Shown piece by piece: positions 1,735-14,055 of a stretch of DNA of 14,055 nt. The position numbers and the translations under genes are program-made. This DNA is from a virus (taxonomy: Duplodnaviria > Heunggongvirae > Uroviricota > Caudoviricetes), in the IMG/VR virus record IMGVR_UViG_2778261354_000013, positions 1-14,055 of that record; one strand, written 5' to 3'. Below the pieces are notes generated by a model. That model saw nothing but the letters and a program-made list of their open reading frames with translations. It was not told the origin of the DNA and did no database searches. How positions within the stretch are numbered: position 1 is the stretch's first letter; each line of letters opens with the position of its first letter.

Positions 1735-1739
1735 AAACA

Positions 1740-2783
1740 ATGAGTAAACGTAAAAAATACACCGGAAAGCGCGGCACGGGCTCACTGGCTGATGCACTGA
1801 AATCAGCGCCGTCACTCAGTGCTTTCACGTTTGACGGTCCTTATGAAGCAAGCCGTCTTGATCTTCTTGATAACATGTCGTGCGCCGATAATGGCCGCTA
1901 CTATGACACCCCTGTGGACTGGAACGCCATAGCCCGCGCCTCCCGTCGTGCGTCCTGGCACCAGTCAGCGTTGTACTTCAAGCGCAATGCCCTTAATGGC
2001 TGTTTTATTCCTCATCCGCTCCTGTCACGCCAGGCATTTTCCGCGTTTGCGCTGGACTGGTTTGTGTTCGGTAATGCCTATCTTGAAGTCCGTCGTAACC
2101 GGCTTGGTGAACCCATTGCGCTTCGTCCGGCGCTGGCGAAATACACGCGGCGGGGCAGTGACCTTGATACGTACTGGTATCTCAGTGATGACGGCTCTGA
2201 ATACGCATTCCGGAAGGGGGCGGTGTGTCATGTGCTTAACCCCGATATCAACCAGGAAATCTACGGGATGCCGGAATATATCGGTGGCCTGCTTTCGGTG
2301 AATCTGTCGAACTCGGCGGATACGTTCCGCAAGCTCTACTATGACAACGGCTCACATGCCGGGTGCATTGTCTATGTTGGTGCCGCCCAGGCAAACGCTG
2401 AAAGCGTGGAGGCGGTAAAGAAAACGCTCACGGAATCCCGTGGCAAAGGTGCGTTCCGCAATATCCTTCTGCACGCGCCAGGTGGTGGCAAGGATGGCGT
2501 GCAAATCCTGCCGTTCCAGCAAATCACCGCGAAGGATGAATTCCTGAACATCAAGGGGAGTGCACGCGACGATATCCTTGCTGCTCACCGTGTACCGCCT
2601 CAGCTGATGGGGGCGATGCCTGACGGTAATGCCGCGTTCGGTGACGTTGAGAAAGCGGCGAGGGTGTTTTTCATCAACGAGCTGCAACCTGTCATGGAGG
2701 CCATGAAGCATGTCAATGAATGGCTTGGTGTTGAGGTGATGCGCTTTAATCCCTATGCGCTGCTTCAGGATGACGCCAGCTGA
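1740..2783 (+). CDS. Portal protein, P2 gpQ-like
   Basis: 347 aa ORF immediately downstream of the terminase gene on the same strand; size and position match P2 gpQ (about 344 aa). No single diagnostic motif was read; the call rests on synteny and length. Confidence 0.7.
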   Translation: MSKRKKYTGKRGTGSLADALKSAPSLSAFTFDGPYEASRLDLLDNMSCADNGRYYDTPVDWNAIARASRRASWHQSALYFKRNALNGCFIPHPLLSRQAFSAFALDWFVFGNAYLEVRRNRLGEPIALRPALAKYTRRGSDLDTYWYLSDDGSEYAFRKGAVCHVLNPDINQEIYGMPEYIGGLLSVNLSNSADTFRKLYYDNGSHAGCIVYVGAAQANAESVEAVKKTLTESRGKGAFRNILLHAPGGGKDGVQILPFQQITAKDEFLNIKGSARDDILAAHRVPPQLMGAMPDGNAAFGDVEKAARVFFINELQPVMEAMKHVNEWLGVEVMRFNPYALLQDDAS

Positions 2784-2810
2784 CGCGCTTCGCTTGTCGG
2801 CTGCTTCGCC

Positions 2811-2833
2811 GGGGCATAAAAAATTTATGCCCC
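2811..2833. other. Perfect 10-bp inverted repeat with 3-nt spacer (GGGGCATAAA-AAA-TTTATGCCCC) 28 bp after the portal stop
   Basis: Read directly from the sequence; no U-tract follows on either strand, so it is not a canonical intrinsic terminator. Possible 3' stabilising stem-loop or protein site. Confidence 0.4.
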
Positions 2834-3230
2834 GACTCTCCAGCTCCACCAACATAAAGCACATCTCAGCCCTTAAATTATTAATCATACTTAACATTAT
2901 GTTTTGCCGTGGTTTTTCCTCTACTTCATGCCATGTCTGCGGTGTGATGTCCCCGCGTTTAATCCCGACCCCGTAAAACTCAATCAGACGCCTTCTGACG
3001 GCCTGCTTCTCTGACCATGTTTTGATGTGGTTTTTCAAAACTGGCTTCACTGCGTGCGTATCACGCGCAATACGCCCCCATATAAAGCAACCTGCCTTCC
3101 ACCCCTCAATTCGGGCGCCCTTCCCTCGTCGCCTGCGCGCTGCAATTGCCTCGTTTTTTGTGCACCGTGCAAACCGGCCTCAGCCAGCGCCGTTACTGGG
3201 CTGAATGGGGATGAAACACATAAGAAAAAT

Positions 3231-3260
3231 TGTGCAATTTCGTGCACTTTTGTGCACTGA
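3231..3260. repeat. Three tandem 10-bp units (TGTGCAATTT / CGTGCACTTT / TGTGCACTGA) with helical phasing
   Basis: Direct reading; two further GTGCA(C/A) copies lie at 3160-3172. GTGCAC is itself palindromic. Confidence 0.5.
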
Positions 3261-3264
3261 AACA

Positions 3265-3287
3265 AACGCCCGGAACAGGGCGTTTTT
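3265..3287. terminator. Bidirectional rho-independent terminator between convergent late (P-Q) and early operons
   Basis: Stem AACGCCC / GGGCGTT with loop GGAACA, followed by TTTTT on + and by TGTTTC on -. It sits 2-5 nt beyond the stop of the last minus-strand gene (3289). Confidence 0.6.
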
Positions 3288-3288
3288 C

Positions 3289-3618
3289 TCATTTCTGCTC
3301 TCCCTTGTGTTGTGCGTTCTCCCTGATTATGTCATTGCATAAATCCACGCACTCATTGCAGATCCAAACAGATGGTCCGGCAATAATCTGTCTGACATCG
3401 TACTGGCTTTTGTTGCAGAAGCTGCAATAAAGCGTCTTCCCGACTGAAGTTGGTGTTTTGCTGGGTTCTCCACACACCAGTCGTTCGATGTCTCTTTCGC
3501 GCCGAAGAGCGATCTGGCTGCATACAGCTATTTTTTGCAGGTTGATGTTTTCTTCTTTCGCCAGTGCTTCAATTCGATCAATCAGTCGCTGTGCTTTTTC
3601 TCTGTCAATATATTGCAT
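3289..3618 (-). CDS. Standalone ClpX-type C4 zinc-finger (ZBD-like) protein, 109 aa
   Basis: C-terminal segment [39 protein letters not shown] closely matches the N-terminal zinc-binding domain of enterobacterial ClpX (recalled from memory: [37 protein letters not shown]). N-terminal ~55 aa are charged and helical. Start chosen at the ATG at 3618 (the track's 3627 is a GTG); the SD is weak. Confidence 0.75.
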
Positions 3619-3632
3619 TGTGCCCACTCTGA

Positions 3633-3980
3633 TTACTGGTTTGCGATGACTGGCAGCTCTTCGCCAGCGCCGTAGATAAACAGAATTCGCTTCATGACTT
3701 CGCTGCGCTTACAGGCTTCGATGACTGATTTTTCCTGTTGCCACTCAGCCCGTTTCGCCAGCTCCAGCCGTTCCTTTTCCGTTGGCTTCCGGTAATGCGT
3801 GATTTTGTCCGTGTACCCGTCCACAACCAGCAGCCCTTCGCGTACCATCTTTCCGGCGGCCTGATTGATTACAGTTCTTCTCACACCCAGTTTTTCGACC
3901 AGCTCCGGCGCGGAAAAACGCGGGTGTGTTTCCAGGTGGCGTAAAATGATTTCCTTTCCGGTCATTCTGGTGGGCTTCAT
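3633..3980 (-). CDS. Putative winged-helix DNA-binding protein, 115 aa
   Basis: Start reassigned to the ATG at 3980 ([20 protein letters not shown]...), preceded by GGAG SD; ATGA overlap with the upstream gene's stop. Central segment [34 protein letters not shown] has an HTH-wing pattern. Confidence 0.65.
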
Positions 3981-4147
3981 TGGGCGGCTCCTTCGTTGTT
4001 CCGGCGTTCCCGGAGTTCGGTCAGTGCTGCCAGTAAATTTTCCCACCACGTTTCTTCCACAACCGGATTGTGTCGTGAAAGCAGCTGCTGCGCTGACTCA
4101 ATCATTTTCTTCAGGTCTTTGTCGCTGATCTTCCTGATGTCGTTCAT
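3977..4147 (-). CDS. Hypothetical small protein, 56 aa
   Basis: Start at ATG 4147 (MNDIRKISDK...) with AAGGAG SD 6 nt upstream; its stop overlaps the start of the next gene (ATGA). Confidence 0.5.
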   Translation of the reverse strand: MNDIRKISDKDLKKMIESAQQLLSRHNPVVEETWWENLLAALTELRERRNNEGAAQ

Positions 4148-4182
4148 GGTGTGCTCCTTTGGTTTGCTGTTTCTGGTCATGT

Positions 4183-4599
4183 TCATGGTCTTTGTTGCCT
4201 GCGTGATTGCCTGTTGGCGGCCGAATGCACATAGCGGGCAATTGCCGCTTTTCGGTTAACGGCGGCCAGCGTTCTTGCCAGCTCTTCGTTGAGTTTTCTG
4301 GTCTGTTTTTCCCGGTACTCCGCCATGATTTTTCCGACGGGGGTCAGTGGTTCAGGTTCTGATATGGCGCGACGAGGACGTACGGCAACGATGAATGCGC
4401 TTCTGTCGGCGTTGATTCTTGCAGTCAGGATGTCGGTCATGACGGTATCTGTGCTGCGATCTGGGTTTGCAATCGTGATTTCCAGTTCGTCGCCTGGCTG
4501 TGGTCGAACACTGACGCCGCTCAGCGTCAGTGCCGGAATGCGTCCGCTCATGATGGTGCTGAAATCATGGCGCTGGAGTACGCAATGGAATCGTGTCAT
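4183..4599 (-). CDS. Hypothetical protein, 138 aa, translationally coupled to gene A
   Basis: ATG at 4599 overlaps the A stop (ATGA); GGAGGT SD 7 nt upstream. No recognisable motif; the C-terminus is a basic helical tail. Confidence 0.6.
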   Translation of the reverse strand: MTRFHCVLQRHDFSTIMSGRIPALTLSGVSVRPQPGDELEITIANPDRSTDTVMTDILTARINADRSAFIVAVRPRRAISEPEPLTPVGKIMAEYREKQTRKLNEELARTLAAVNRKAAIARYVHSAANRQSRRQQRP

Positions 4600-7109
4600 G
4601 GGTTCACCTCCGGTTGATCCACTGCCACCAGGCTTCGTGATTTCTCATCCCAGTGCACAATCCGCCCGTCAGGCAGGCGAACGCGTGCACCTCTGTGTAC
4701 GGAAAGCGCCGCGCTACTGTGCAATTCCTCGCCCGTCGTGCTCAGTGCCGACTTGATCACGGTGGTGGTGACGTCATCCAGCGGCAATGCTGTACGCACA
4801 TGTATGACGTCATCGGGCGTAGTGGTGCCGCCGGTTTTCACGGTTTTTGTGTCAGATGGCACATTTTTCAGCTGCCTGGTGAGTTGTTTTCGCTCTGTGG
4901 GGGTCAGTGACCTTAACCACTCGCCCAAATCACCTTCCGGGATGGTCAGCTTCTGCTCTTTCCTCCCTTCAGGTGGTGGGGTTTTGTCTGTTTCGTTGTT
5001 TGTTTTTTCGTCTACCCCACAGTTATTGCCACGAGTCCAAGGTGCGGCGAAGCCGCCCCCAACGTCAAAACCCTCGTCCGTGCTGTTGTCGTTTTTCGCT
5101 TCTTTTCTGACCAGTTTCCACTCGTCCTGATGGGTACAGATGGTGTAGCGCTCTCCGAGCGACGGGGCACAAATTCCGTAGATGCGCTGCGGGAGCTCGC
5201 CGTAGTCGTTGGCCTCACCGGCGGTTTCGTATGCAGTTCGTAGCAAATACGAGTTACGAGGAACAAGCACACCGCCCTGACGGATGATGTAGGAGGCAAA
5301 ACATCCCACGTCTGCGGCGGCCAGAATGGCGTCAATGTCTTCATGGTCGAGGCGCTTCGGTGATGCCGGGTTGCGCTCCATCTGTCCGGCAAGGCGGCGG
5401 AGTTCACGCCATACCTGGCGGGGCGGAATACCGAAGAACTGGAACTGCCGGATGCGGTGGAGGCTTGCCCAGGCAATGGCGTTTTCCACGGTTTCCGCCA
5501 TGGTTTTTCCTGATTCCTCATCGGCGTAAGGTTTGCCGGTTTTCGGGTCATTGCCGTGGAAGGCGCTGGCGTCCAGGTTCTTACCGATATAGGTTGCTAT
5601 GTAGCTTGCTGGCGAGCCTTTTGCCGGGTCGATCTCCTCGCATTTAAAGCGTGGTGAAATGTCGTCACCCAGTTCAGCGCGGTCTGACTTGATTGCAGCG
5701 TTACGCATAATTTCAATGATGCGGTCTTTGTTCTCTGGCGCGGTAAATACCAGCATGTGCCAGTGTGGCGTGCCGTCATGGTGCGGCTCAACGGTGCGCA
5801 CCCCGTACCAGCTCATACCGGCATCCTTCAGGGCATAACGCACGGCTGCAAAGAAGTCGTACACCAGATAATCGCTGGCATCGCGTACGGTGGCACCGTT
5901 GTATTTCGGGTTCAGGCTGCCGTCCTCGTTCACAGTGTGAAAGCGGGAAGGGCAGGTCACTGTCACGAAGAACGCGGAGTCACCGCGCGATTCGGCGATC
6001 TGTTCCATCCCTCTGACGCAGGCCATCATCTCGTTGCGGCGATTGCGTGGATTACCCAGCCCTGACCAGTACACGTCCTCCAGACTCAGGCGTTCACCGT
6101 CTTCGTTTTCAATATCCCAGCTTTTGAGAAAATCACGGGTGCGCTGGCGTTTCTCGCGAAACCCCTGAAGTGATTCATGGCTGATGTAGGGGGATGTCTT
6201 GCGCGATACTCTTCCGGCGGCACGCAGTAATTCCTCCCGCCAGAGATCAGCGAGGTGGCGCAGCTGGCTGTTCCACCAGGTGGCGCAGGTGATGCGCATT
6301 ACCGCACCCGGTACCCGCTCAGGGTCTGGTGCCGTGCGGCGGTCACGTCTGATCTCTAGTGACGGCCAGTATGGTGGGTTCACGCCCAGTTTTAACGCCA
6401 TGCGCGCCAGCTGCTGGTAAGTCAGCAACCAGGTAAACAGGTTATCGTCGCCTTTTCCGGTCCGCTCAATGACTTCATCGCATATGCGTTCCAGTTCGGT
6501 GGAAAATGCCGCCGCCGTCAGTGTGGCAAGTCGCTGAATCTGATCACGGTTGAGTTCCGGCAGCATGAGTAATTCATCAAGACGATGACGTGCCGCTGTG
6601 GCTTTGAATGCTGTCGTGGCGAAGCGTTCATTCACCTGTTTGATGCGGTTGAGGCGTCTGCTTAGCCCACGGCGAACGAAGTTATCTGCTACGTGTGTAT
6701 TGTTGTTTTTCACGCCTTCATTGCGGGCGCTCTGTTGTTTTCTGTTTAAACGCGCCAGATCACGAATGAGCGCGTTGCCAAGAAATGAGGGCAGGGCGCG
6801 AAGTTCTGCCATGGCTTCCGATACCACCGTGGGCGGATTCTCGCGTTTGTGCCGCGCCAGTTTTTCCAGTCTGATCCGACGCTCTTCGTCGTGGTGAAGA
6901 TGCGAATTAATTCGCTTGCCTTCGTCTGTGTTTGTCAGGAAGTCGACGGTTTCTTCATCCAGTCTGGCATCAATGCGAATGTCCTCGTTGATGTAGCTCT
7001 GAATGGCCTGGCGTAATGCGGTTGGCTGTGCTCTGCCGAACGTTTCAGGATCGATAACCGGTAGCGGGGCGTTCCACGGGTACGCCAGTTGTGCGTTATG
7101 GTCGCTCAT
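4596..7109 (-). CDS. Rolling-circle replication initiation endonuclease, P2 gpA family
   Basis: 837 aa. HUH-type metal-binding motif TPHWHMLVF (about 5751-5765) and paired catalytic tyrosines in SYIATYIGK (about 5589-5603). GGGGAG SD 8 nt before the ATG at 7109. Position matches P2 gene A. Confidence 0.85.
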   Translation of the reverse strand: MSDHNAQLAYPWNAPLPVIDPETFGRAQPTALRQAIQSYINEDIRIDARLDEETVDFLTNTDEGKRINSHLHHDEERRIRLEKLARHKRENPPTVVSEAMAELRALPSFLGNALIRDLARLNRKQQSARNEGVKNNNTHVADNFVRRGLSRRLNRIKQVNERFATTAFKATAARHRLDELLMLPELNRDQIQRLATLTAAAFSTELERICDEVIERTGKGDDNLFTWLLTYQQLARMALKLGVNPPYWPSLEIRRDRRTAPDPERVPGAVMRITCATWWNSQLRHLADLWREELLRAAGRVSRKTSPYISHESLQGFREKRQRTRDFLKSWDIENEDGERLSLEDVYWSGLGNPRNRRNEMMACVRGMEQIAESRGDSAFFVTVTCPSRFHTVNEDGSLNPKYNGATVRDASDYLVYDFFAAVRYALKDAGMSWYGVRTVEPHHDGTPHWHMLVFTAPENKDRIIEIMRNAAIKSDRAELGDDISPRFKCEEIDPAKGSPASYIATYIGKNLDASAFHGNDPKTGKPYADEESGKTMAETVENAIAWASLHRIRQFQFFGIPPRQVWRELRRLAGQMERNPASPKRLDHEDIDAILAAADVGCFASYIIRQGGVLVPRNSYLLRTAYETAGEANDYGELPQRIYGICAPSLGERYTICTHQDEWKLVRKEAKNDNSTDEGFDVGGGFAAPWTRGNNCGVDEKTNNETDKTPPPEGRKEQKLTIPEGDLGEWLRSLTPTERKQLTRQLKNVPSDTKTVKTGGTTTPDDVIHVRTALPLDDVTTTVIKSALSTTGEELHSSAALSVHRGARVRLPDGRIVHWDEKSRSLVAVDQPEVNP

Positions 7110-7522
7110 GCGTCACACTCCCCGACAGTTGCCGTCTGAAACGCCGCGCGGTACAGCACGAGAAGGCGCTGGTATTCGCCGATAAAACCTTCTGCGGTGT
7201 ATATACCTTTCACGGCCACGCTGTGGTTTGTCATTTCCAGAACAAGCGCCATCTCTGACGACGACCAGCTGATGGCGGTACTGTCGGTGCCGTTGATGTG
7301 AAATAAACCAAAGCTATCACCATCACCTTTCACGTCCACGCGGTAACGACCGTCAACGGTGAAGGAGAAATCCCCGTATGTGGTGATGCTGCGGGCAGCC
7401 TGTTTACAGGCACGGCGGTAATGGTCGTGCCAGTTGTTCAGACGTGAAGCCAGTCTGGGATCAACCGCCCACATCCAGTTAAAAAAGTCCTGAATATCTG
7501 AAAGTCCCTTAACGCTCTTCAT
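7106..7522 (-). CDS. Hypothetical protein, 138 aa, immediately upstream of A
   Basis: GGAGGT SD 4 nt before ATG 7522; stop overlaps the A start (ATGA). No motif recognised. Confidence 0.6.
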   Translation of the reverse strand: MKSVKGLSDIQDFFNWMWAVDPRLASRLNNWHDHYRRACKQAARSITTYGDFSFTVDGRYRVDVKGDGDSFGLFHINGTDSTAISWSSSEMALVLEMTNHSVAVKGIYTAEGFIGEYQRLLVLYRAAFQTATVGECDA

Positions 7523-7545
7523 GAGAACCTCCGGTAACAGACGTG

Positions 7546-7582
7546 CGGAAGCCTCCCGCGCACGGGTGCGGGATAGCTTCCG
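7546..7582 (-). other. GC-rich nested stem-loop in the intercistronic gap (7523-7590)
   Basis: Outer stem CGGAAGC / GCTTCCG and inner stem CCCGC / GCGGG, read directly. No U-tract, so not a canonical terminator. Confidence 0.3.
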
Positions 7583-7590
7583 GATATGGT

Positions 7591-7815
7591 TTATCGGCGC
7601 TTGTTGTTGATGAGGCTTTGCAGTTCTGCCAGGTCTTCGGCCAGATAGCTGAAGACGGCAGCGCAGTAACGGTTTGACAGCGCGTGCGTGCGCTCATGCA
7701 GCATGTTGATGTGCATGATTTGCGCGACGCGTGTTGCGCGGAAAAGTCTGCGGTTGATTTCGCTGCGGATGTGAATACGCTCAGCGCGGGCGCGCTTTTG
7801 CTTGCGGTTTGCCAT
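7591..7815 (-). CDS. Hypothetical basic protein, 74 aa
   Basis: ATG 7815 preceded by AGAGG SD at 7 nt; N-terminus is Arg/Lys-rich (RKQKRARAERIHIR). First gene after a ~380 bp non-coding spacer. Confidence 0.55.
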   Translation of the reverse strand: MANRKQKRARAERIHIRSEINRRLFRATRVAQIMHINMLHERTHALSNRYCAAVFSYLAEDLAELQSLINNKRR

Positions 7816-8112
7816 GGTGTGGCCTCTTCGTTTGTGAATTTTGAAAACTCACCATCCAGAGCTGCGAAACTGTGGGTGGCGAGACGTACGAGGTTCGCAG
7901 TACCGGCAAACGAAGAAACCGGCCCGACCGAAGTCGGCCCCGTACGCCCCGCCATAATTCTGACGCGAAAAAGACGTGGCGATACAGTACGCACAAAAAA
8001 ACCGCTGGCGCGGCTGTGCGCTTCGTTTGTCAGCAGGCTGCGAAACCCGACACCCGTTTTATGAGATGCAGCGGAAATGTAACCTGACTCAACGAGCACT
8101 GGCAAGCGGTTT

Positions 8113-8140
8113 TTGTGTTGCGTGCTGAAGTATGTATAAT
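8113..8140 (+). promoter_or_regulatory. Candidate sigma70 promoter for the plus-strand membrane-protein gene
   Basis: TATAAT at 8135-8140 with a weak TTGTGT -35 16 bp upstream; strong GGAGG SD at 8191-8195. By-eye prediction only. Confidence 0.3.
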
Positions 8141-8201
8141 CGCGGCGCAAAAATGGAATGCGCCGAAGGATAGCGGCGTTTATTAACAATGGAGGTTGTT
8201 T

Positions 8202-8669
8202 ATGCCTGTTGCTATGGAGCAAGCAGACAAGAAGATTTTTTTCCATCTGTGGTACAGCTACTGGCTGGAAGAGATGGTTTTCATACTCAGCAATAAAGCC
8301 GCTGCCGTGTTGCGCGCCGGGGCACTGATTGCTGCGGTATTGTCCTTTCTTCTCGTAGGTTTTCCCGTCCTGATGAGCCTTTGCGGGCTGGCGTTTTTTG
8401 TTTTTTCCTGGTTTTGCAGCAAGTGTGAATTCGTCGCCGAACTGGCGTGCTGGCAGAAACAGAGCTACCTTCGTCTGATTACGCAAAGGGATTCCATGAG
8501 CACTGAACGCCTCATTGAGCGCATTCTGTATCTGGAAGAAACGAACAGCGCATTCATGAAGGCGTTTGTCAGGCCTGCAAAAAACAAAGCGAGCGCATCT
8601 GTTGGTCTGTCTGCCAGCGAGCATTTGCGTTACTCCGAAAGGTTAATCTGCTGGTTGTGCGGCTTCTGA
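8202..8669 (+). CDS. Predicted inner-membrane protein with two TM helices and a C-terminal Cys-pair domain (CSKC...CWLC), 155 aa
   Basis: ATG 8202 with GGAGG SD at 6 nt spacing (the track's 8196 start is TTG). Hydrophobic segments AAAVLRAGALIAAVLSFLLVGF and VLMSLCGLAFFVFSWF. The only plus-strand gene inside the minus-strand early operon. Confidence 0.55.
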   Translation: MPVAMEQADKKIFFHLWYSYWLEEMVFILSNKAAAVLRAGALIAAVLSFLLVGFPVLMSLCGLAFFVFSWFCSKCEFVAELACWQKQSYLRLITQRDSMSTERLIERILYLEETNSAFMKAFVRPAKNKASASVGLSASEHLRYSERLICWLCGF

Positions 8670-8996
8670 CCGGCGAAGCAGCTGCGCGACGGTTTCGCCG
8701 CCTGCCCGGGCAGACGGGTATGACACTGGCATATTCAGCTTGAGTGCCATTGCGTACTCCGCCCATGCGCCAGCGGACTCTTCCCATCCATCCAGTAAGT
8801 AAATGGCATCGGCACACATGAGCATCGGAATACAAATGCTCATGTACTGCTGTTGGCTCATGAATACCGATGCGCCACCCACAAACGGCTCAACCAGGCA
8901 GTCAGCTTCTGGCAGATGCGCCTTCAGTGTGTTCATGATGCGGCTTTTGCCGCCCACCCATACCAGCGGTGTACCGGATAACCGTTCTTTGCTCAT
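8643..8996 (-). pseudogene. Dam-family N6-adenine methyltransferase, N-terminal remnant (117 aa ORF, truncated)
   Basis: [35 protein letters not shown] matches the Dam N-terminal SAM-binding region (E. coli Dam from memory: [35 protein letters not shown]). The ORF ends after 117 aa with no DPPY catalytic motif, and none was found in any minus frame downstream. AAAGAGG SD precedes ATG 8996. Confidence 0.6.
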
Positions 8997-9205
8997 AACG
9001 CGGCCTCTTTGTTATAGGTTTCGTGCGTTAATAAATCCCATGATGCCCCGTTGTTTTTGCTCAGCAGTCGCCAGCGAAAACCGATTCTTATTACCAGGTA
9101 GTTGTGGGGTTTTATGCGTGAAAAATTCCGCACGCCGTCGCGGAATAAATGCAGCGATGCGCGGGCTTTTCTTTCCACGTTCAGGGGGGGGGCAGCAACA
9201 CACAT
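8993..9205 (-). CDS. Possible small upstream ORF (70 aa) containing a C9 tract, coupled to the Dam-like start
   Basis: Stop overlaps the Dam-like ATG (ATGA), but there is no SD before ATG 9205. A second frame (9012-9221) also spans the homopolymer. Coding status is uncertain. Confidence 0.25.
   Translation of the reverse strand: MCVAAPPLNVERKARASLHLFRDGVRNFSRIKPHNYLVIRIGFRWRLLSKNNGASWDLLTHETYNKEAAL
9184..9192. repeat. G9 homopolymer tract (C9 on the minus strand)
   Basis: Read directly: nine consecutive G at 9184-9192, between the exonuclease stop and the Dam-like gene. Confidence 0.9.
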
Positions 9206-9231
9206 TCAGGATGGCGACCATAGCTTCACAC

Positions 9232-9813
9232 TCATATGCTCAGGAATGGCGTTGGGAAGCGCTGCCAGATTTCTGACACGACCCTTGCCTGGTAAATGGC
9301 ATCGCCCAGTGCAGTGTGAGCAATGGTCTCTTTGCCTGATCGGCCTGGTATTCCCCAGCCGGAGGACTTAGCCATGTCGATAAGCGAGCGCATACAGCGC
9401 TCGTTCCAGTAGCGCCACGGAATACTTTTTTCTCCGGTTGTTCGCTTTATGGCTGATCTCAGGATTGGGAAAACAAAGGATGCGCCCTTGCACCATACGA
9501 TTAGTTGATTGCCCATGGTTTCGTCTTGCATGTTGCGCGAAATGAACGCCAGAAATTCGGTTACTGCCGCAAGTTCTGTTCCCTCTGCGTTGAGCAGGCA
9601 GGATCTGGCCTCCGCGGATTCCCCGGCCCACCATAAGGCGGTTGATGCATTGACGGTTCCGCCGTTGCGCTCTGAATCCACCGGGTCGATGTATTTCTCA
9701 AACTGCTTGCCCAGCTTTCCGGTGAACGGGTCGAAAAACACCGCGCCGATCGCGAATATGACTGCATCCGGTCCGGTACCCAGTGTTTCGGTGTCGATCA
9801 TGAGATGGTTCAC
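9232..9813 (-). CDS. DnaQ-like (DEDDh) 3'-5' exonuclease, 193 aa
   Basis: Exo I motif MIDTETLG and Exo III motif HTALGDAIYQA. Start proposed at GTG 9813 (AAGGAG SD 8 nt upstream; GTGA overlap with the upstream stop); ATG 9801 is an alternative. Confidence 0.75.
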   Translation of the reverse strand: MNHLMIDTETLGTGPDAVIFAIGAVFFDPFTGKLGKQFEKYIDPVDSERNGGTVNASTALWWAGESAEARSCLLNAEGTELAAVTEFLAFISRNMQDETMGNQLIVWCKGASFVFPILRSAIKRTTGEKSIPWRYWNERCMRSLIDMAKSSGWGIPGRSGKETIAHTALGDAIYQARVVSEIWQRFPTPFLSI

Positions 9814-10034
9814 TGTGTGCACTCCTTCTGTTCGGCGTTGTTCGTGAGCGTTGCAATCAGTCGTTCAATGGATGAACATGTTTCCAGCGGGGAGGTGTGC
9901 TTCTCTCTCGCCGTGTTAACCAGGTCACTCAGTAATTCGCAGATATGTGCACGCTCGGCTTTTCTTGCGGCCATGCTGATGTGTGCATGATGGTTAACTG
10001 GTCTGGCGGTTGTTGGTGATTCGACTATTCTCAT
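9810..10034 (-). CDS. Hypothetical protein, 74 aa
   Basis: ATG 10034 with AGGAG SD at 7 nt. Shares short colinear patches with the 7591-7815 protein (AERxHI ... LxNN). Confidence 0.55.
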   Translation of the reverse strand: MRIVESPTTARPVNHHAHISMAARKAERAHICELLSDLVNTAREKHTSPLETCSSIERLIATLTNNAEQKECTQ

Positions 10035-10134
10035 TTGTTGACTCCTGAAAAAAGACAAAGGGAAGCCGAAGGCATGAATGCCTTAATTAATTGTTCGTGT
10101 GTTTTCTGGTGTTATTCCGCGCCTGCTTTCAGCT

Positions 10135-10239
10135 TCAGATTATCCCCAGATTCTTCAGCGCTAACCATATAAGCGCGCACACCTGAAATACCAACCATGC
10201 AGTGGCGATATTCAGTATTATTATTTTCACGTGCTTCAT
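10135..10239 (-). CDS. Possible small hydrophobic peptide, 34 aa (MKHVKIIILNIATAWLVFQVCALIWLALKNLGII)
   Basis: Translated by hand from the minus strand; not in the ORF track (below its length cutoff). ATG 10239 lies 12 nt after the upstream peptide's stop with a weak AGAG SD. One predicted TM segment. Confidence 0.25.
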   Translation of the reverse strand: MKHVKIIILNIATAWLVFQVCALIWLALKNLGII

Positions 10240-10251
10240 AATCTTTTCTCT

Positions 10252-10377
10252 TTATTTACGGCGTTTGTCGCCAGTAAAAAATAATTCGACATCCTTCAGT
10301 GTGTGGATAATTCGCATAACGCCGATTGCCATAAGCACGGATATAATCAGAATTACCCATGAAAGGAATATGCTCAT
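10252..10377 (-). CDS. Small single-pass membrane peptide, 41 aa (MSIFLSWVILIISVLMAIGVMRIIHTLKDVELFFTGDKRRK)
   Basis: Translated by hand; AGGAG SD 7 nt before ATG 10377, whose start overlaps the upstream gene's stop (ATGA). Hydrophobic N-terminal helix and charged C-terminal tail. Confidence 0.45.
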   Translation of the reverse strand: MSIFLSWVILIISVLMAIGVMRIIHTLKDVELFFTGDKRRK

Positions 10378-10616
10378 GCTGCCACTCCTGTGAAGTAAGG
10401 CTCAACAATTTCACCTTCAAACAGTTCTGTCATAATCGACTTTAATTCTTCCAGTGCTTCACGGTCATCGCTGCCCAGCGCGCAGTTATACAGTCCCATA
10501 ATTGCGCCGCGCAGTGAGTTACGAAGGCTTTCATCCTTAGTTACGCCCCGGTTTGCAAGTTCGAAGTGGTAACGCTGCAACGCGTTATTAATAAGTATTT
10601 TGTAGGCTTCGATCAT
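10374..10616 (-). CDS. Hypothetical protein, 80 aa
   Basis: ATG 10616 with AAGGA SD at 7 nt. No motif recognised. Confidence 0.55.
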   Translation of the reverse strand: MIEAYKILINNALQRYHFELANRGVTKDESLRNSLRGAIMGLYNCALGSDDREALEELKSIMTELFEGEIVEPYFTGVAA

Positions 10617-10634
10617 GACTGAATCCTTTATTTA

Positions 10635-10979
10635 TCAGTGCTTACTTCCCGGATACTGAAAACACAGGCCGTTGATTAATCTGTCTGCCGTTCTTAAGGC
10701 ATCAAAAAATGTGAAGTCCTGTCCGAAGTAATCATCTCCGCGAGTCAGAGTAAAATTAAATCGGCCAGTAACAGGGCTGCGAAAACTTTTGTGAATAACG
10801 ATGTCGGTATCACCAATCGTCCAGGTGTGCTTGCCAGTTTGTTTTACCGGGTGACCGTCTGGTGTGGCGTGTATTTCGGTGGTTGCGGTCGCACTATTTT
10901 TACGGAAGTGCTGGCGTGCACCGTGGCGTTCGGTGCCAGTGAAGAATTTTAGTCGTGAGGTACTAGCGTTTTTCTTCAT
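10635..10979 (-). CDS. Hypothetical protein, 114 aa
   Basis: ORF with a weak SD, in operon context directly downstream of the Cox-like gene. No motif recognised. Confidence 0.5.
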   Translation of the reverse strand: MKKNASTSRLKFFTGTERHGARQHFRKNSATATTEIHATPDGHPVKQTGKHTWTIGDTDIVIHKSFRSPVTGRFNFTLTRGDDYFGQDFTFFDALRTADRLINGLCFQYPGSKH

Positions 10980-10999
10980 AGTTATGCTCGCTTCATTGT

Positions 11000-11203
11000 T
11001 TAGCTGTTGGCTATTGCGTCTTTTAACATAGCTATAAGGTTTACTTCTGGTTTTTCCATTTTGACACGTTTGGGGCGGATAATAATTCGACCGTCAGCCA
11101 ACATCTTTTTGCATGTGTTAAGAGGAATGCCTGTTATCTCGGCGTATTTCTTCAGAGATACGTAAGGGGCATTAACGTTGATGTTTATTGTTATACCTTG
11201 CAT
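11000..11203 (-). CDS. Cox/excisionase-like HTH regulator, 67 aa
   Basis: Start reassigned to ATG 11203 (MQGITININVNAPYVSLKKYAEITGIPLNTCKKMLADGRI...) with AGGAGG SD at 8 nt. The PY-HTH-(R/K)M(I/L)xDG(K/R) pattern resembles P2 Cox (recalled from memory). Confidence 0.6.
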   Translation of the reverse strand: MQGITININVNAPYVSLKKYAEITGIPLNTCKKMLADGRIIIRPKRVKMEKPEVNLIAMLKDAIANS

Positions 11204-11207
11204 CCCG

Positions 11208-11426
11208 TTAACCTCCTGAGCATGAAGATTGGCTTTGCTCTTTCTGTGTAACCTCAAGGCCGCGAAGGAAGATCATGCGTGCCATGTTAGAGGATGTGCG
11301 TTGTTCTTTAGCCGCCATTTCATCAATGACGGCTCGCTCTTCTGCTGACAATCGAAGTGCTAGTCGTTGGCCTGTTGCGGTGTTACGCGGAATACGTGAT
11401 CTGGTGCTGTGATTAACTTGTTTCAT
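11208..11426 (-). CDS. Ribbon-helix-helix (RHH) DNA-binding protein, 72 aa; first gene of the early operon
   Basis: RLALRLSAEERAVIDEMAAKEQRTSSNMARMIF has a beta-strand then helix pattern typical of RHH/MobC-like domains. No SD before ATG 11426; sits directly at the divergent switch region. Confidence 0.55.
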   Translation of the reverse strand: MKQVNHSTRSRIPRNTATGQRLALRLSAEERAVIDEMAAKEQRTSSNMARMIFLRGLEVTQKEQSQSSCSGG

Positions 11427-11501
11427 AGTGGTATATTGTGATCATCTAATTGCTCGTTAAGGTATTTTGGTATCAAAAAAGATACCTGTCAAGGTTTTTG
11501 T
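11427..11501. promoter_or_regulatory. Divergent lysis-lysogeny switch region with repeated GGTAT half-sites and a consensus -35 on the minus strand
   Basis: Perfect TTGACA on the minus strand (11487-11492); GGTAT motifs at 11430-11434, 11461-11465, 11469-11473 and inverted at 11482-11486. By-eye prediction. Confidence 0.45.
11469..11486. promoter_or_regulatory. Candidate operator: 18-bp dyad GGTATC-AAAAAA-GATACC
   Basis: Perfect inverted repeat read directly; it abuts the minus-strand TTGACA and lies 16 bp upstream of the repressor ATG. Confidence 0.5.
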
Positions 11502-11906
11502 ATGAAAAATGATATCGGTCAGCGGCTGCGTGAGGAAAGGGAACGGCTGGGTCTTAGCCAAGTCGCTATGAGTGATATTGGTGGGGTTAAAAAGTTAACC
11601 CAACTTAGATATGAGAAAGGGGATAGCTTTCCTGATGCGGCGTACTTATCAGCATTGTCGCGTTTTGGCCTTGATGTTCAGTATGTCGTGTTGGGAATTC
11701 ATTCACCTGAAACTTATAACGATGATGAACAGGAGTTGATCACACGTTTTCGGAGTGCCTCACTAGATGTGAAAAACGCGGTGATTGGTGCTTTGAAAGG
11801 TGCAGTCACTGAAAAGGAGGACCAGTTATCAGGGGGAGAGTTAAATATCTCTGGCGGGAATAACCGCATCGCAGGCCGTGACTATAACGAAACAAAAGGT
11901 AAGTGA
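11502..11906 (+). CDS. XRE-family HTH repressor (putative immunity repressor, C/CI-equivalent), 134 aa
   Basis: N-terminal HTH (IGQRLREERERLGLSQVAMSDIGGVKKLTQLRYEKG); divergent from the Cox-like/RHH genes and upstream of int on the same strand. C-terminal tail carries the NNRIAGRDY motif. Confidence 0.7.
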   Translation: MKNDIGQRLREERERLGLSQVAMSDIGGVKKLTQLRYEKGDSFPDAAYLSALSRFGLDVQYVVLGIHSPETYNDDEQELITRFRSASLDVKNAVIGALKGAVTEKEDQLSGGELNISGGNNRIAGRDYNETKGK

Positions 11907-11921
11907 TAGCAAGGAGGTGGC

Positions 11922-12566
11922 ATGACGGTCAACTCAAACGGTTCAAATAATCGCATTGCTGGGCGAGATTACCAAGAAAAGAATATTCAGATAGAGCGAT
12001 ATGATGGCTCTCATACCGTCAATATCGCAATTCCTTCGAGCAATGACAGTGATCAACGTCCTTTGCTTAAGATTCAGCGGAAGGCGTTAAATAGTTTGGT
12101 CGCTACTATTGTAGATGCCAGCAATACCGAAGCGTTTATTATTTGGCAAAAATTGCATGCAGAGATTGGTGTAGACGGTATTGATGATATAACAATGAAT
12201 CAATATAAGACCGCAGAGAGCTTTCTGTGTGCGATGCTTGAACGATGTAAAGATCATGATGCGCGTAAGGCACTTGTAAGTATTTTACTTCGTAATAGTG
12301 AAGTTGGAGTGCTTCGTCAAAAACTTATCCGCTATTGCCATATCAATTTCGGAACGGGTCGCTTAAACGATCTTACTCGTTCTCAGCTTCAGATGGCTCT
12401 TTCCTGGTTAGACCAACAATCCGTGGAAGGAGAAAAGAAATTAACTGCTAACAATTCTGTCGGTAGTCAATTACAGATGAATTTTCAGCAAATAATTAAA
12501 AAACACCCAAAAGAAACAGGAATGTGTTTCGTTGTTGGTGTTTTATTAGGCAGTGTTCTTTTCTGA
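11922..12566 (+). CDS. Hypothetical tail-anchored protein, 214 aa (C-terminal TM helix MCFVVGVLLGSVLF)
   Basis: Strong AAGGAGGT SD; N-terminus repeats the NNRIAGRDY motif of the repressor tail; AT-rich codon composition suggests acquired cargo. Confidence 0.6.
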   Translation: MTVNSNGSNNRIAGRDYQEKNIQIERYDGSHTVNIAIPSSNDSDQRPLLKIQRKALNSLVATIVDASNTEAFIIWQKLHAEIGVDGIDDITMNQYKTAESFLCAMLERCKDHDARKALVSILLRNSEVGVLRQKLIRYCHINFGTGRLNDLTRSQLQMALSWLDQQSVEGEKKLTANNSVGSQLQMNFQQIIKKHPKETGMCFVVGVLLGSVLF

Positions 12567-12761
12567 TAGATAGTTGTTGGAGAAAGATATTATGGCAAAA
12601 GCTTGCTTTACCGACTTTAGAATAAATGAAAAAGATAAATTAAGCGAGCTGACAAAGGTGGGAGGGGGCTAGTGATGTAAGAAATGGTGTGAGTTACTTG
12701 TCATGGTCTTAAAGAAAAGTAAGTCTTTGTTCATGAGGAAGTCCAAAGAGGTAAATGAATT

Positions 12762-13019
12762 ATGGTAACTAATCCGCAAATTCCATTAACTGGTTTATAT
12801 GTATCTAAAGTTAATCCATCTAATCGTATAGTTGTTACTAATGTTCATATTGTCCAGGGCGATGACGATGAGCCCGGAGATCTTCCTTTCTATTTGGTTA
12901 CTTTTGTAAATGAGGGGGATGAGGATGATATGTCGGCTCCTTCTTGGGAGCTTGATCCTGATGAATGGGAGCAGTTAGTTGATGAAAAGCTCTTTATGCG
13001 GGTTGGGCAACCATCTTAA
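12762..13019 (+). CDS. Highly acidic small protein, 85 aa
   Basis: AAGAGG SD 10 nt upstream of ATG 12762; D/E-rich clusters (GDDDEPGD, EGDEDD, ELDPDEWEQLVDE). Lies between the cargo gene and int. Confidence 0.5.
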   Translation: MVTNPQIPLTGLYVSKVNPSNRIVVTNVHIVQGDDDEPGDLPFYLVTFVNEGDEDDMSAPSWELDPDEWEQLVDEKLFMRVGQPS

Positions 13020-13053
13020 TAACGAAAATTTTCCTTGGTGTGCACTTTTTAAT

Positions 13054-14055
13054 ATGTCTGTTCGTAAACTATCTACTGGTAAATGGCTCTGTGAATGCTA
13101 TCCCTACGGAGCAGCAGGAAAACGCATTCGTAAGCAGTTTGCGACAAAAGGTGAGGCGCTCTCTTATGAGCGCCGTTTAATGAACAGTAATTTAGGGGGA
13201 GAGTTTCAGGATGGTTCTGGTCCCCGTCTTTCCGAGTTGGTTGCTCGCTGGTTTGATATGTACGGTAAAACGTTGTCTTCCGGTGAAGAGCGCAAGGCTA
13301 AACTTGAGGCGGTTTGCTCTAGGTTGGGTGATCCGTTTGCTTCTCAATTTGATAAAAATATGTTTGCCATCTACAGGGAACGGCGGTTATCAGGTGAATG
13401 GAATCCAAAGGGGAAGAAAAAACTTAGTGAAGCAACCGTTAATCGCGAGCAGTCATATTTGCATGCTGTTTTTGCTGAACTGAAGCGCCTTGGGGAGTGG
13501 TCTGGTGAAAATCCATTGACAGGTATTCGCAAGTTTCGTGAGGAAGAAAAGGAGCTGGCGTTTCTGTATGCAGATGAGATTGAACGCCTTCTGATTGCAT
13601 GTGATGAGTCACGGAATAAAAATTTGGGTGTTGTCGTCCGTATTGGGCTTGCGACTGGTGCCAGGTGGAGTGAAGCAGAGGGATTAAAGCAATCTCAAAT
13701 ACTGCCTGGACGAATCACATTTGTTAAAACCAAAGGAAAGAAGAACCGCACTGTACCTATTTCACCTCAATTGCAGGCCATGCTTCCTAAAAAACGCGGG
13801 GCGCTTTTTTCACCATGTTATGAGGCTTTTGACGCCGCTATTAAGAGAGCAAAGATCGAACTTCCTGACGGGCAATTAACTCATGTGCTACGTCATACGT
13901 TTGCCAGCCATTTTATTATGCGGGGAGGAAATATTCTTGTGTTGCAAAAAATACTGGGGCATAGCGATATAAAAATGACTATGCGTTATGCACACTTTGC
14001 GCCGGATCATTTAGAGGCTGCTGTTGAACTGAATCCCTTTGACAATAGAGAGTAA
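13054..14055 (+). CDS. int: Tyrosine integrase, P2 Int-like
   Basis: Start reassigned to ATG 13054 (MSVRKLSTGKW...). C-terminal catalytic signature HVLRHTFASH ... GHSDIKMTMRYAHF; the N-terminus resembles P2 Int (recalled from memory). The stop is the last base of the window. Confidence 0.9.
   Translation: MSVRKLSTGKWLCECYPYGAAGKRIRKQFATKGEALSYERRLMNSNLGGEFQDGSGPRLSELVARWFDMYGKTLSSGEERKAKLEAVCSRLGDPFASQFDKNMFAIYRERRLSGEWNPKGKKKLSEATVNREQSYLHAVFAELKRLGEWSGENPLTGIRKFREEEKELAFLYADEIERLLIACDESRNKNLGVVVRIGLATGARWSEAEGLKQSQILPGRITFVKTKGKKNRTVPISPQLQAMLPKKRGALFSPCYEAFDAAIKRAKIELPDGQLTHVLRHTFASHFIMRGGNILVLQKILGHSDIKMTMRYAHFAPDHLEAAVELNPFDNRE

Follow-up and report, generated by a model that had tools for sequence, protein, structure and literature searches.

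Matched terminal peptides in a prophage immunity repressor and the protein encoded beside it

How is induction decided in a prophage whose repressor the SOS response cannot cleave? The question is an old and open one for P2-like and many other prophages, and it is raised again by a stretch of viral DNA of 14,055 nucleotides (IMG/VR virus record IMGVR_UViG_2778261354_000013, positions 1 to 14,055; hereafter, the window) that holds the immunity region of a P2/186-like (Peduoviridae) prophage. Here an XRE-family immunity repressor of 134 residues (11502..11906, + strand) ends, and the 214-residue protein encoded by the next gene (the partner; 11922..12566, + strand) begins, with a copy of one peptide, NNRIAGRDY. 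An earlier reading, made from the letters of the DNA without database searches (the sequence-only reading), had drawn attention to this match. What keeps two neighboring proteins alike in so small a part, and what might the likeness do?

A repressor tail matched to its neighbor's head

The nonapeptide lies at repressor residues 120-128 (nucleotides 11859-11885) and partner residues 9-17 (11946-11972), which confirms the outer coordinates first reported. The repressor C-terminus reads ...LNISGGNNRIAGRDYNETKGK and the partner N-terminus MTVNSNGSNNRIAGRDYQEKN, and the likeness is longer than the nonapeptide: the repressor segment LNISGGNNRIAGRDYNE (the tail; residues 114-130, 11841..11891, + strand) and the partner segment VNSNGSNNRIAGRDYQE (the head; residues 3-19, 11928..11978, + strand) are identical at 12 of 17 residues. 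A chance match is excluded, since in 2,000 residue shuffles of both proteins the longest common substring was at most 6, as against the 9 observed. Moreover, a six-frame scan of the window found the core [IVL][AS]GRD[IFYVL] at these two sites only.

The two copies are collinear, in frame, and 87 nucleotides apart, and they are identical at 20 of 27 nucleotides. Seven of the nine codons differ, every change being synonymous and at the third position, exactly as the sequence-only reading had listed. The explanation then offered, that selection acts on the peptide and that no recent DNA duplication is involved, proves to be both strongly supported and general. Across 33 distinct matched pairs, the 296 identical residues that have more than one codon share the same codon 139 times, versus 136.4 expected from local codon usage. 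Codon sharing at the random expectation means that synonymous sites are fully randomized and that it is in the protein that the match is maintained; neither recent duplication, nor gene conversion, nor a role at the DNA or RNA level can then be its cause. (A direct repeat for recombination is likewise ruled out by the low nucleotide identity.) In the matched segments N is 3.6-fold enriched, followed by G (2.3), H (1.9), V (1.8), and Q (1.6), whereas L (0.13), E (0.44), and P (0.6) are depleted; such a composition is beta-prone and typical of strand-turn-strand segments.

Relatives of both proteins carry the peptide as well. The partner is an Flk-like protein (described below), with homologues from Escherichia, Klebsiella, Enterobacter, Serratia, Erwinia, and others; heads of the form M.VNS.G..NR.[AS]GRD[FY].E occur in all 120 of its database homologues, down to 56% identity and with rare single substitutions. 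About 50 of 120 repressor homologues end in ..INVSGxGNR[VI]AGRD[YF]NENKK, and remoter repressors carry other tails, rich in G, N, Q, and V and ending in a basic cluster. Co-occurrence is tight: in 80 of 80 IMG/VR contigs that encode an Flk-like relative, the Flk-like gene is directly preceded by a repressor with the tail motif. Homologous phages thus conserve the peptide in both genes, as the sequence-only reading had led one to look for, and the outcome also favored the finding when homologues with the motif in one gene only were at issue.

How general is the arrangement? Loci with relatives of the window repressor were collected (80 loci, one genome per species; all locus sets were seeded with this one repressor family, to which the prevalence figures apply), and the last 30 residues of each repressor were compared, by local score, with the first 50 residues of the next downstream open reading frame (ORF). 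Tail and head matched in 35 of 79 loci (Gamma- and Betaproteobacteria), with cognate scores of 30-70; unrelated pairs averaged about 18 (standard deviation about 5). Between loci the peptide is very different, and within each it is matched: locus L017 pairs the tail KQVFKGSVSGVAGRDVVK with the head KQTFKGPVGDVAGNDVVK; L025, TVDYGNAQIGQASAGDIVN with TVSFGGAQIDQAAAGDINN (quoted in shorter form, GNAQIGQASAGDIVN with GGAQIDQAAAGDINN); L016, QQINGPISGGVAGRDFVQ with QEINGDVEGGIAGRDIVR; L015, QIFNGDISGQFAGNQIIN with QEFNGTAQGQFSSRDIIN; and L054, GSGSVQIGHIGGDY with GDGGIQVGSVGGDL. In most matched loci the intergenic distance is about -50 to +35 nucleotides, and many of the gene pairs overlap by 4 nucleotides.

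Two earlier designs for judging this covariation were replaced: single-linkage clustering that included conserved flanks merged nearly all loci into 4 families, and a "tail class" defined by regular expression missed obvious cases. The permutation test that succeeded them takes in all loci, with repeated greedy de-redundancy (mutually dissimilar representatives, 15-26 per draw, in 30 random greedy draws, tail-less loci being kept in). Median z values were 5.1-8.3, and usually 0 of 5,000 permutations reached the observed sum. Over 26 loci, the mean score of a locus's own tail and head was 45, versus 22 between the tails, and 19.5 between the heads, of different loci; these sequence comparisons point to concerted evolution of tail and head within each locus. 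An independent IMG/VR set of 48 distinct pairs gave z values of 4.2-5.0 (8-9 unrelated representatives), and added new partner families.

The repressor, its partners, and the switch region

The repressor comprises a helix-turn-helix (HTH) domain (residues ~1-68), two helices (74-109), and a flexible tail (105-134). It matches the Pfam families HTH_31, HTH_19, and HTH_3, at scores below the curated cut-offs, and PHROG families of transcriptional regulators or repressors; NCBIfam matches of the RstR/DicA-like kind are sub-threshold. Its place in the window, with int on one side and a divergent Arc/Cox operon on the other as in P2 and 186, fits an immunity repressor. HTH matches are the only ones, no C-terminal S24 peptidase being found, and in this the protein departs from the SOS-cleavable repressors of LexA/CI type. 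In its AlphaFold2 model (mbc1fdf53388f, from a 29-sequence alignment) the predicted local confidence (pLDDT) is 80-92 for residues 1-104 and below 50 for residues 105-134. (What would be a natural "tail-less" variant, the tail being probably frameshifted, was observed in IMG/VR contig 2675903287_000009: the repressor 3' end reads ...LRLQVVPVSGSLVEIFTRTKSKAREVWHGD, with no tail motif, and the Flk-like protein downstream retains the head METNGVRNRAAGRDFHE.)

The partner (phrog_5825, E 3e-90) is predicted to have four parts: the head; a flexible region; an Flk/ORF6C-like helical cytoplasmic core (residues 45-177; 12054..12452, + strand; pLDDT 83-93); and a C-terminal transmembrane (TM) anchor (residues 196-213; 12507..12560, + strand). 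The anchor is a predicted helix with the top hydropathy window (residue 197), and a hydrophobic C-terminus is kept in the family alignment. The AlphaFold2 model of the partner (m719ebd0e4769) shows a confident helical core (pLDDT mostly 85-93 over residues 45-170) and the helix at 196-213, with pLDDT below 50 at residues 1-28 and 31-39. In both models, then, the motif appears to sit in a flexible terminal extension, as short interaction motifs do.

Precomputed annotation places PF27202 on all 120 partner homologues, and the partner has the helical core and C-terminal TM anchor of this Flk-like group. Against the NCBIfam Flk profile NF007987 it scores 58.4 bits (E 7e-16), far below the equivalog cut-off of 353 bits for a full-length match; the alignment pairs its residues 38-168 with positions 21-151 of the 339 in the profile. 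True Flk proteins, of 280-490 residues, start MQPxSGPG... and are without the head motif; among prophage-type Flk-like members the heads belong to many motif families, and in every case they lie within 20-60 residues of the N-terminus. An exhaustive profile search returned 139 Flk-like clusters only. In a few proteins the Flk-like core stands behind a Rha (PF09669, E 6e-26), an AntA/AntB (PF08346, E 3e-24, with ORF6C), or a BRO-N domain; these are antirepressor-type architectures. These agree with Pfam matches to GemA and ORF6C, sub-threshold, in 15 of 25 and 6 of 25 Flk-like members, and with a BFVD fold search that gave marginal matches only, to ORF6C, Bro-N, and "regulatory" proteins. The partner itself had no match in Pfam (including none to a Rha, AntA/AntB, or BRO-N N-terminal domain) or in PADLOC, and a fold search of the PDB gave nothing significant (the best match, one chain from the SaPI2 Stl/Sak complex, had E 0.63).

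Flk-like proteins are one kind of partner among several. In an all-against-all BLASTP comparison the downstream partners fall into at least 12 unrelated families, of which the Flk-like tail-anchored family is the largest (18 of 33 loci; Enterobacterales, Gilliamella, Pseudomonas, Aeromonas, and others). Of the other partners, most are 140-330 residues long and contain a strong hydrophobic segment or two; a few are apparently soluble. Almost none is recognized by Pfam or PHROGs, and the eight non-Flk partners examined had no match in Pfam. All have in common only the head motif, together, usually, with a hydrophobic membrane-type segment. Since the head is the sole feature common to unrelated partners, the motif itself would be the shared functional element, and the pattern argues that unrelated proteins repeatedly acquired a copy of their repressor's tail.

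Some heads hold two or three consecutive motif-like units within residues 1-50 (PVGQAIQAGEANIADRSVNIRAGSIGSVAGRDIVN in locus L036; YAAGRDINS..VQTIAGGTNIIGNQGDIHIQ in L073), which suggests a repeat or solenoid-like arrangement in certain partners. Nor does every head have an adjacent tail, as Ralstonia phage RS138 illustrates (NC_029107.1, locus 1735-3088): its ORF2, of 204 residues, is homologous to the soluble L073-type partner and has the head-like N-terminus APIVNVSGGTVFVGNGNVHNVYTV, and the upstream regulator, ORF3, 313 nucleotides away, is without a matching tail.

The two halves also occur fused. The family phrog_17822 matches the window repressor over profile positions 5-96 and the soluble L073 partner over positions 94-264 (E 2e-27). 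The 267-residue "CI-like repressor" of Pseudomonas phage Gregale (Casadabanvirus; WWQ71757.1) has an HTH 37% identical over 67 residues to that of the window repressor (E 1e-8), a C-terminal domain homologous to the L073 partner, and between them a motif-like linker, SAVSISGGNFAGFVG... The halves thus appear to be one polypeptide in some phages and, in others, two adjacent genes that each carry a copy of the junction peptide; fused and split forms together make a Rosetta-stone argument for physical association. The sequence-only reading, sound on the peptide and its codons, had foreseen neither these fusions nor the Flk/ORF6C-like identity of the second protein, the generality of the match, or its likeness to amyloid-signaling gene pairs (discussed below).

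In the window, a 15-nucleotide spacer (11907..11921, + strand) with the Shine-Dalgarno sequence AAGGAGG (11911-11917) separates the two genes, and no terminator-like site was found between them on the + strand; co-transcription is therefore plausible. The genes share a reading frame, and their junction (11904-11924) reads TGA TAG CAA GGA GGT GGC (stop, stop, QGGG), that is, two tandem stops and four sense codons. It looks like a former in-frame junction, which would fit a history of fusion and fission of the gene pair. Read-through or frameshift fusion of repressor and partner is ruled out by the two stops.

The surroundings are those expected of a lysis-lysogeny switch. On the + strand the gene order is repressor, partner, an 85-residue DUF8087 protein, and a tyrosine integrase, which ends the same-strand module (12979..14055; Pfam Int_N and Phage_integrase; phage integrase in E. 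coli homologues; the coordinates are those of the longest ORF, and translation probably starts further downstream). On the - strand, divergent from the repressor operon, lie an Arc-like (ribbon-helix-helix) regulator of 72 residues, first gene of the lytic operon (11208..11426; phrog_3431, E 5e-26; "Arc-like repressor" in Escherichia phage 520873), and a Cox/Apl-like excisionase-repressor (11000..11203; phrog_575, E 2e-26; "Cox-like excisionase and repressor" in the same phage). By its sequence matches, then, the window shows the CI/Cro-type layout: an HTH protein divergent from an early lytic (cro/cox/apl-like) operon, near int. Judged by its position, the 75-nucleotide region between the repressor and Arc-like genes (11427..11501) would be the switch region. 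It contains a promoter-like site on the - strand (11492..11464; TTGACA-17-CAAAAT, score 10/12), overlapped by a candidate operator, a 9-nucleotide inverted repeat (AGGTATTTT / AAGATACCT, 11460-11468 / 11479-11487, 10 nucleotides apart). A small divergent ORF adjoins the repressor in 31 of 31 matched genome loci, and both of the two that were checked match phrog_925, an HTH DNA-binding family, so these loci too look like bona fide genetic switches.

The module was found in 524 of the 5,426 complete E. coli genomes, of which many are O157:H7 strains; most matches are ~85% identical over ~64% of the query, and at least 80% of the query is covered in ten genomes. Nucleotide similarity to the common E. 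coli O157-type prophage ends at ~12422, within the partner gene. Beyond this point (to 13000) the partner has a different linker and TM end, and the small gene that precedes int is DUF8087 in the window and DUF2511 in the O157-type prophage; ~12422 marks a mosaic or cargo-swap boundary. The nearest phage record is that of Escherichia phage 520873 (Xuanwuvirus; 85% nucleotide identity). There (NC_049344.1, locus 2991-5033) the Flk-like gene is unannotated and, in tblastn, falls into three pieces, apparently frameshifted; the integrase is split into two coding sequences. These breaks are either sequencing indels or marks of a decaying prophage.

Elsewhere, the window contains a portal gene, a GpA replication gene (4596-7109, - strand), and DUF4761. 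A 371-residue ORF (7509-8624, - strand) matches PHROG "transcriptional regulator/repressor" families over residues 165-289 (E ~1e-14), with no match in Pfam, NCBIfam, or PADLOC. Its N-terminal half has no assignment, and the prophage may have in it a second regulator or an antirepressor. A 45-residue ORF (11275-11412, + strand) runs antisense to the Arc-like gene; its annotation by PGAP in E. coli homologues, as a hypothetical protein (WP_001537127.1, WP_001673482.1), probably represents an over-call within the switch region.

What the match might do

The sequence-only reading had proposed a shared partner, a common protease or degron site, and strand exchange between the two proteins. The last fits best: the peptide differs between loci yet co-varies within each, which favors pairing of like with like. 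A common degron, or a site for a common host protease or partner, should stay the same in all phages that share a host, and is not what the diversity of the motif would lead one to expect.

The evidence leans, if modestly, toward a reading in which matched, flexible, beta-prone termini bind like with like, and so join the repressor to a membrane partner that controls how much of it is active. The repressor tail would be the last part of that protein to be made; on the same mRNA, the partner head would come first when the next cistron is translated. The two would pair as a strand zipper, possibly with cross-beta stacking, and thus connect the DNA-binding module of the repressor to a membrane-anchored protein with an antirepressor-type (Flk/ORF6C-like) cytoplasmic core. 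In the lysogen, the partner would set the amount of free, active repressor, most likely as a built-in, membrane-tethered antirepressor or sensor that sequesters the repressor or drives it into an assembly. The switch would then be flipped without SOS cleavage, by an SOS-independent route to derepression; the repressor is without a peptidase domain. What the data show is the match, its covariation within loci, selection on the protein, low-confidence flexible termini, tight co-occurrence, natural fusions, and domain relationships of the antirepressor type. Physical binding (for which the evidence is evolutionary), its beta-type geometry, and the direction and outcome of control are inferred, and of these steps the direction of control is the weakest.

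A bolder form of pairing, rather unlikely, is a prion-like, cross-beta templating switch in the lysis-lysogeny circuit of temperate phages of Proteobacteria: once triggered, a membrane sensor with a copy of the repressor tail would nucleate a repressor-inactivating assembly. If so, the induction signal would be SOS-independent, self-propagating, and phage-specific, each phage having its own motif. It would also be the first amyloid-type signaling to act on a transcription factor, and one encoded by the phage rather than the host.

Several observations weigh against like-with-like pairing as a means of control. AlphaFold gives both motifs low confidence and no strand. Co-expression of an antirepressor-like partner with its repressor, in a lysogenic operon, is puzzling. 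A few repressors with tails of this type have no matched neighbor (loci L020, L033/L034, and L068), and the tail may also act alone. In enterobacterial heads, one variable position (I/V/T/S/A/N) does not track its counterpart in the tail (I/V), so strict residue-by-residue identity is not required. An AG[RGN]D[IV]-type core recurs in heads from many families, which hints at an additional constraint beyond matching. Finally, the apparent disruption of the Flk-like gene in phage 520873 means that it may be dispensable for lysogeny.

Best placed among the alternatives, though unlikely, is a constitutive two-part repressor, in which the partner would supply, in trans and after the gene of an ancestral HTH-plus-C-domain repressor had split in two, the C-terminal (oligomerization or anchoring) domain. 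The complex would be the active form, and the partner would be needed for repression; the matched peptides would hold the halves together, their assembly aided by adjacent translation. Co-expression in a lysogenic operon would be natural on this account, and the geometry (C-terminus upstream, N-terminus downstream, spacing short or overlapping) suits assembly on one mRNA. The fused forms, the Gregale repressor and phrog_17822, do span both halves with a motif-like linker; however, they concern the soluble L073-type family, and no HTH-Flk-like-TM fusion was found among 138 newly returned Flk-like cluster representatives. A conserved oligomerization role also sits oddly with at least 12 unrelated partners, mostly with hydrophobic segments, and the relatives of the Flk-like core are antirepressor-type proteins. 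The apparent disruption of the partner gene in phage 520873 again counts against a partner needed for repression.

Could the pair instead kill the cell? In a BASS-like abortive infection system, the repressor or its triggered oligomer would nucleate a cross-beta form of the tail, template the head, and so activate a toxic membrane effector. The genomic signature is the one by which such systems were discovered (a 15-25 residue motif, C-terminal in one protein and N-terminal in the other, on collinear neighbors with short or overlapping spacing); the motif is rich in G, N, Q, and V; many partners are small, with one or two hydrophobic, TM-like segments; and an amyloid abortive infection pair borne by E. 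coli prophages is documented. The explanation is nonetheless distinctly unlikely. No NLR/STAND or other oligomerizing sensor and no Bell/HeLo-type effector was found, and PADLOC returned nothing for the partner. The enterobacterial motif carries charges (R, R, D, E) that are unfavorable for in-register stacking, and a protein with a tail anchor and so large a helical regulatory core does not readily suggest a pore former. Moreover, both proteins would be made together constitutively in lysogens, where spontaneous nucleation would be costly.

It is very unlikely that a common third factor (a protease, adaptor, chaperone, or other phage protein) recognizes both termini as a degron or docking site. 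A conserved and flexible terminus is typical of degrons and docking motifs, the AG[RGN]D[IV]-like core recurs in heads of different families, and the tails end in a basic cluster. A host factor, however, would impose one conserved motif per host, and the peptide is radically different between loci, sometimes within one host genus, yet matched at each; a phage-encoded factor would itself need to co-vary, and the loci, with their differing neighbors and unrelated partners, have no such factor in common. That the match is a non-functional relic (of junction duplication or gene fission) or a DNA- or RNA-level element (a direct repeat for recombination or regulation) is scarcely credible: the two copies are collinear, in frame, and close together, and fusion and fission of the gene pair clearly happened in evolution, but synonymous sites are randomized while residues are conserved, the motif persists in both genes across families 56-94% identical, unrelated partner families each match their own repressor, and the 20 identical nucleotides of 27 belong to no longer repeat.

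The reading preferred here, pairing of tail and head, points to a testable physical link between an immunity repressor and a membrane protein that share one transcript, with its specificity held in ~17 phage-variable residues. If the pairing is real, it represents a new wiring of the genetic switch, in which a partner recognizes the repressor by a copy of the repressor's own tail. The logic of matched terminal motifs, known so far only from NLR/effector cell-death systems, would then extend to the way in which phages control transcription (phages of Enterobacterales, Pseudomonas, Aeromonas, Gilliamella, and Betaproteobacteria, and among them a prophage present in hundreds of E. coli genomes, some of them O157:H7). 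The motif pairs, which are naturally orthogonal, would also serve well as tags for hetero-association, being small and portable.

Comparison with known systems

Amyloid-signaling pairs were found through a motif that is C-terminal in one protein and N-terminal in its collinear neighbor, the genes being short-spaced or overlapping (Dyrka et al., bioRxiv 10.1101/2020.01.06.895854), and one such pair, Bab/Agp (BASS11), mediates abortive infection from prophage hotspots in E. coli (Ibarlosa et al., bioRxiv 10.1101/2024.11.07.622273). The present pairs resemble these systems (HET-S/NWD2, BASS1-10 Bell/NLR, and Bab/Agp) in several respects: a terminal motif of ~15-25 residues on collinear neighbors, with short or overlapping spacing; variation of the motif between loci and matching within them; a composition of G, N, and Q with hydrophobic residues; and one membrane-targeting partner. 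With Bab/Agp they also share residence in E. coli prophages. The shared C-/N-terminal motif by which FASS and BASS pairs are recognized is seen in the window (with 15-nucleotide spacing), in 35 of 79 genome loci, and in most of the 48 viral pairs; the likeness, known from sequence, is one of genomic signature and composition only. The protein classes are different: the window is without a NLR/STAND/TPR sensor and without a Bell/HeLo effector, the upstream protein being an XRE immunity repressor and the downstream one an Flk/ORF6C-like or other small membrane protein. The context is a lysis-lysogeny switch rather than a defense island, and the enterobacterial motif is unusually charged. HTH or XRE proteins are not mentioned in the BASS paper, and no description of a repressor/partner motif pair was found in literature on Flk and prophage repressors, on amyloid signaling with helix-turn-helix proteins or, since 2024, with phage, or on PF27202.

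The c repressors of Casadabanvirus (D3112-like) phages are close in another way. They have a homologous HTH, a C-terminal domain homologous to the L073 partner, a motif-like linker, and a divergent regulator gene. Each is a single polypeptide with one such linker, whereas the window has two genes, two copies of the motif, and an Flk-like, membrane-anchored partner. The tail-anchored flagellar regulator Flk of Salmonella and E. coli shares with the partner a homologous helical cytoplasmic core and a C-terminal membrane anchor; the window protein, by contrast, is prophage-encoded, is paired with a repressor, and carries a head motif.

Phage repressor-antirepressor systems (P22 Ant, 186 Tum, CTX-phi RstR/RstC, and VP882 cI/Qtip) leave the immunity repressor uncleaved, and some aggregate or sequester it. 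The partner is like them in having a core homologous to the modules that stand behind Rha, AntA, and BRO-N antirepressor domains. To our knowledge, known antirepressors are separately regulated and soluble, and recognize folded repressor domains. The candidate in the window would differ on each count: co-transcribed with its repressor and anchored in the membrane, it would recognize that repressor through a copy of the repressor's tail.

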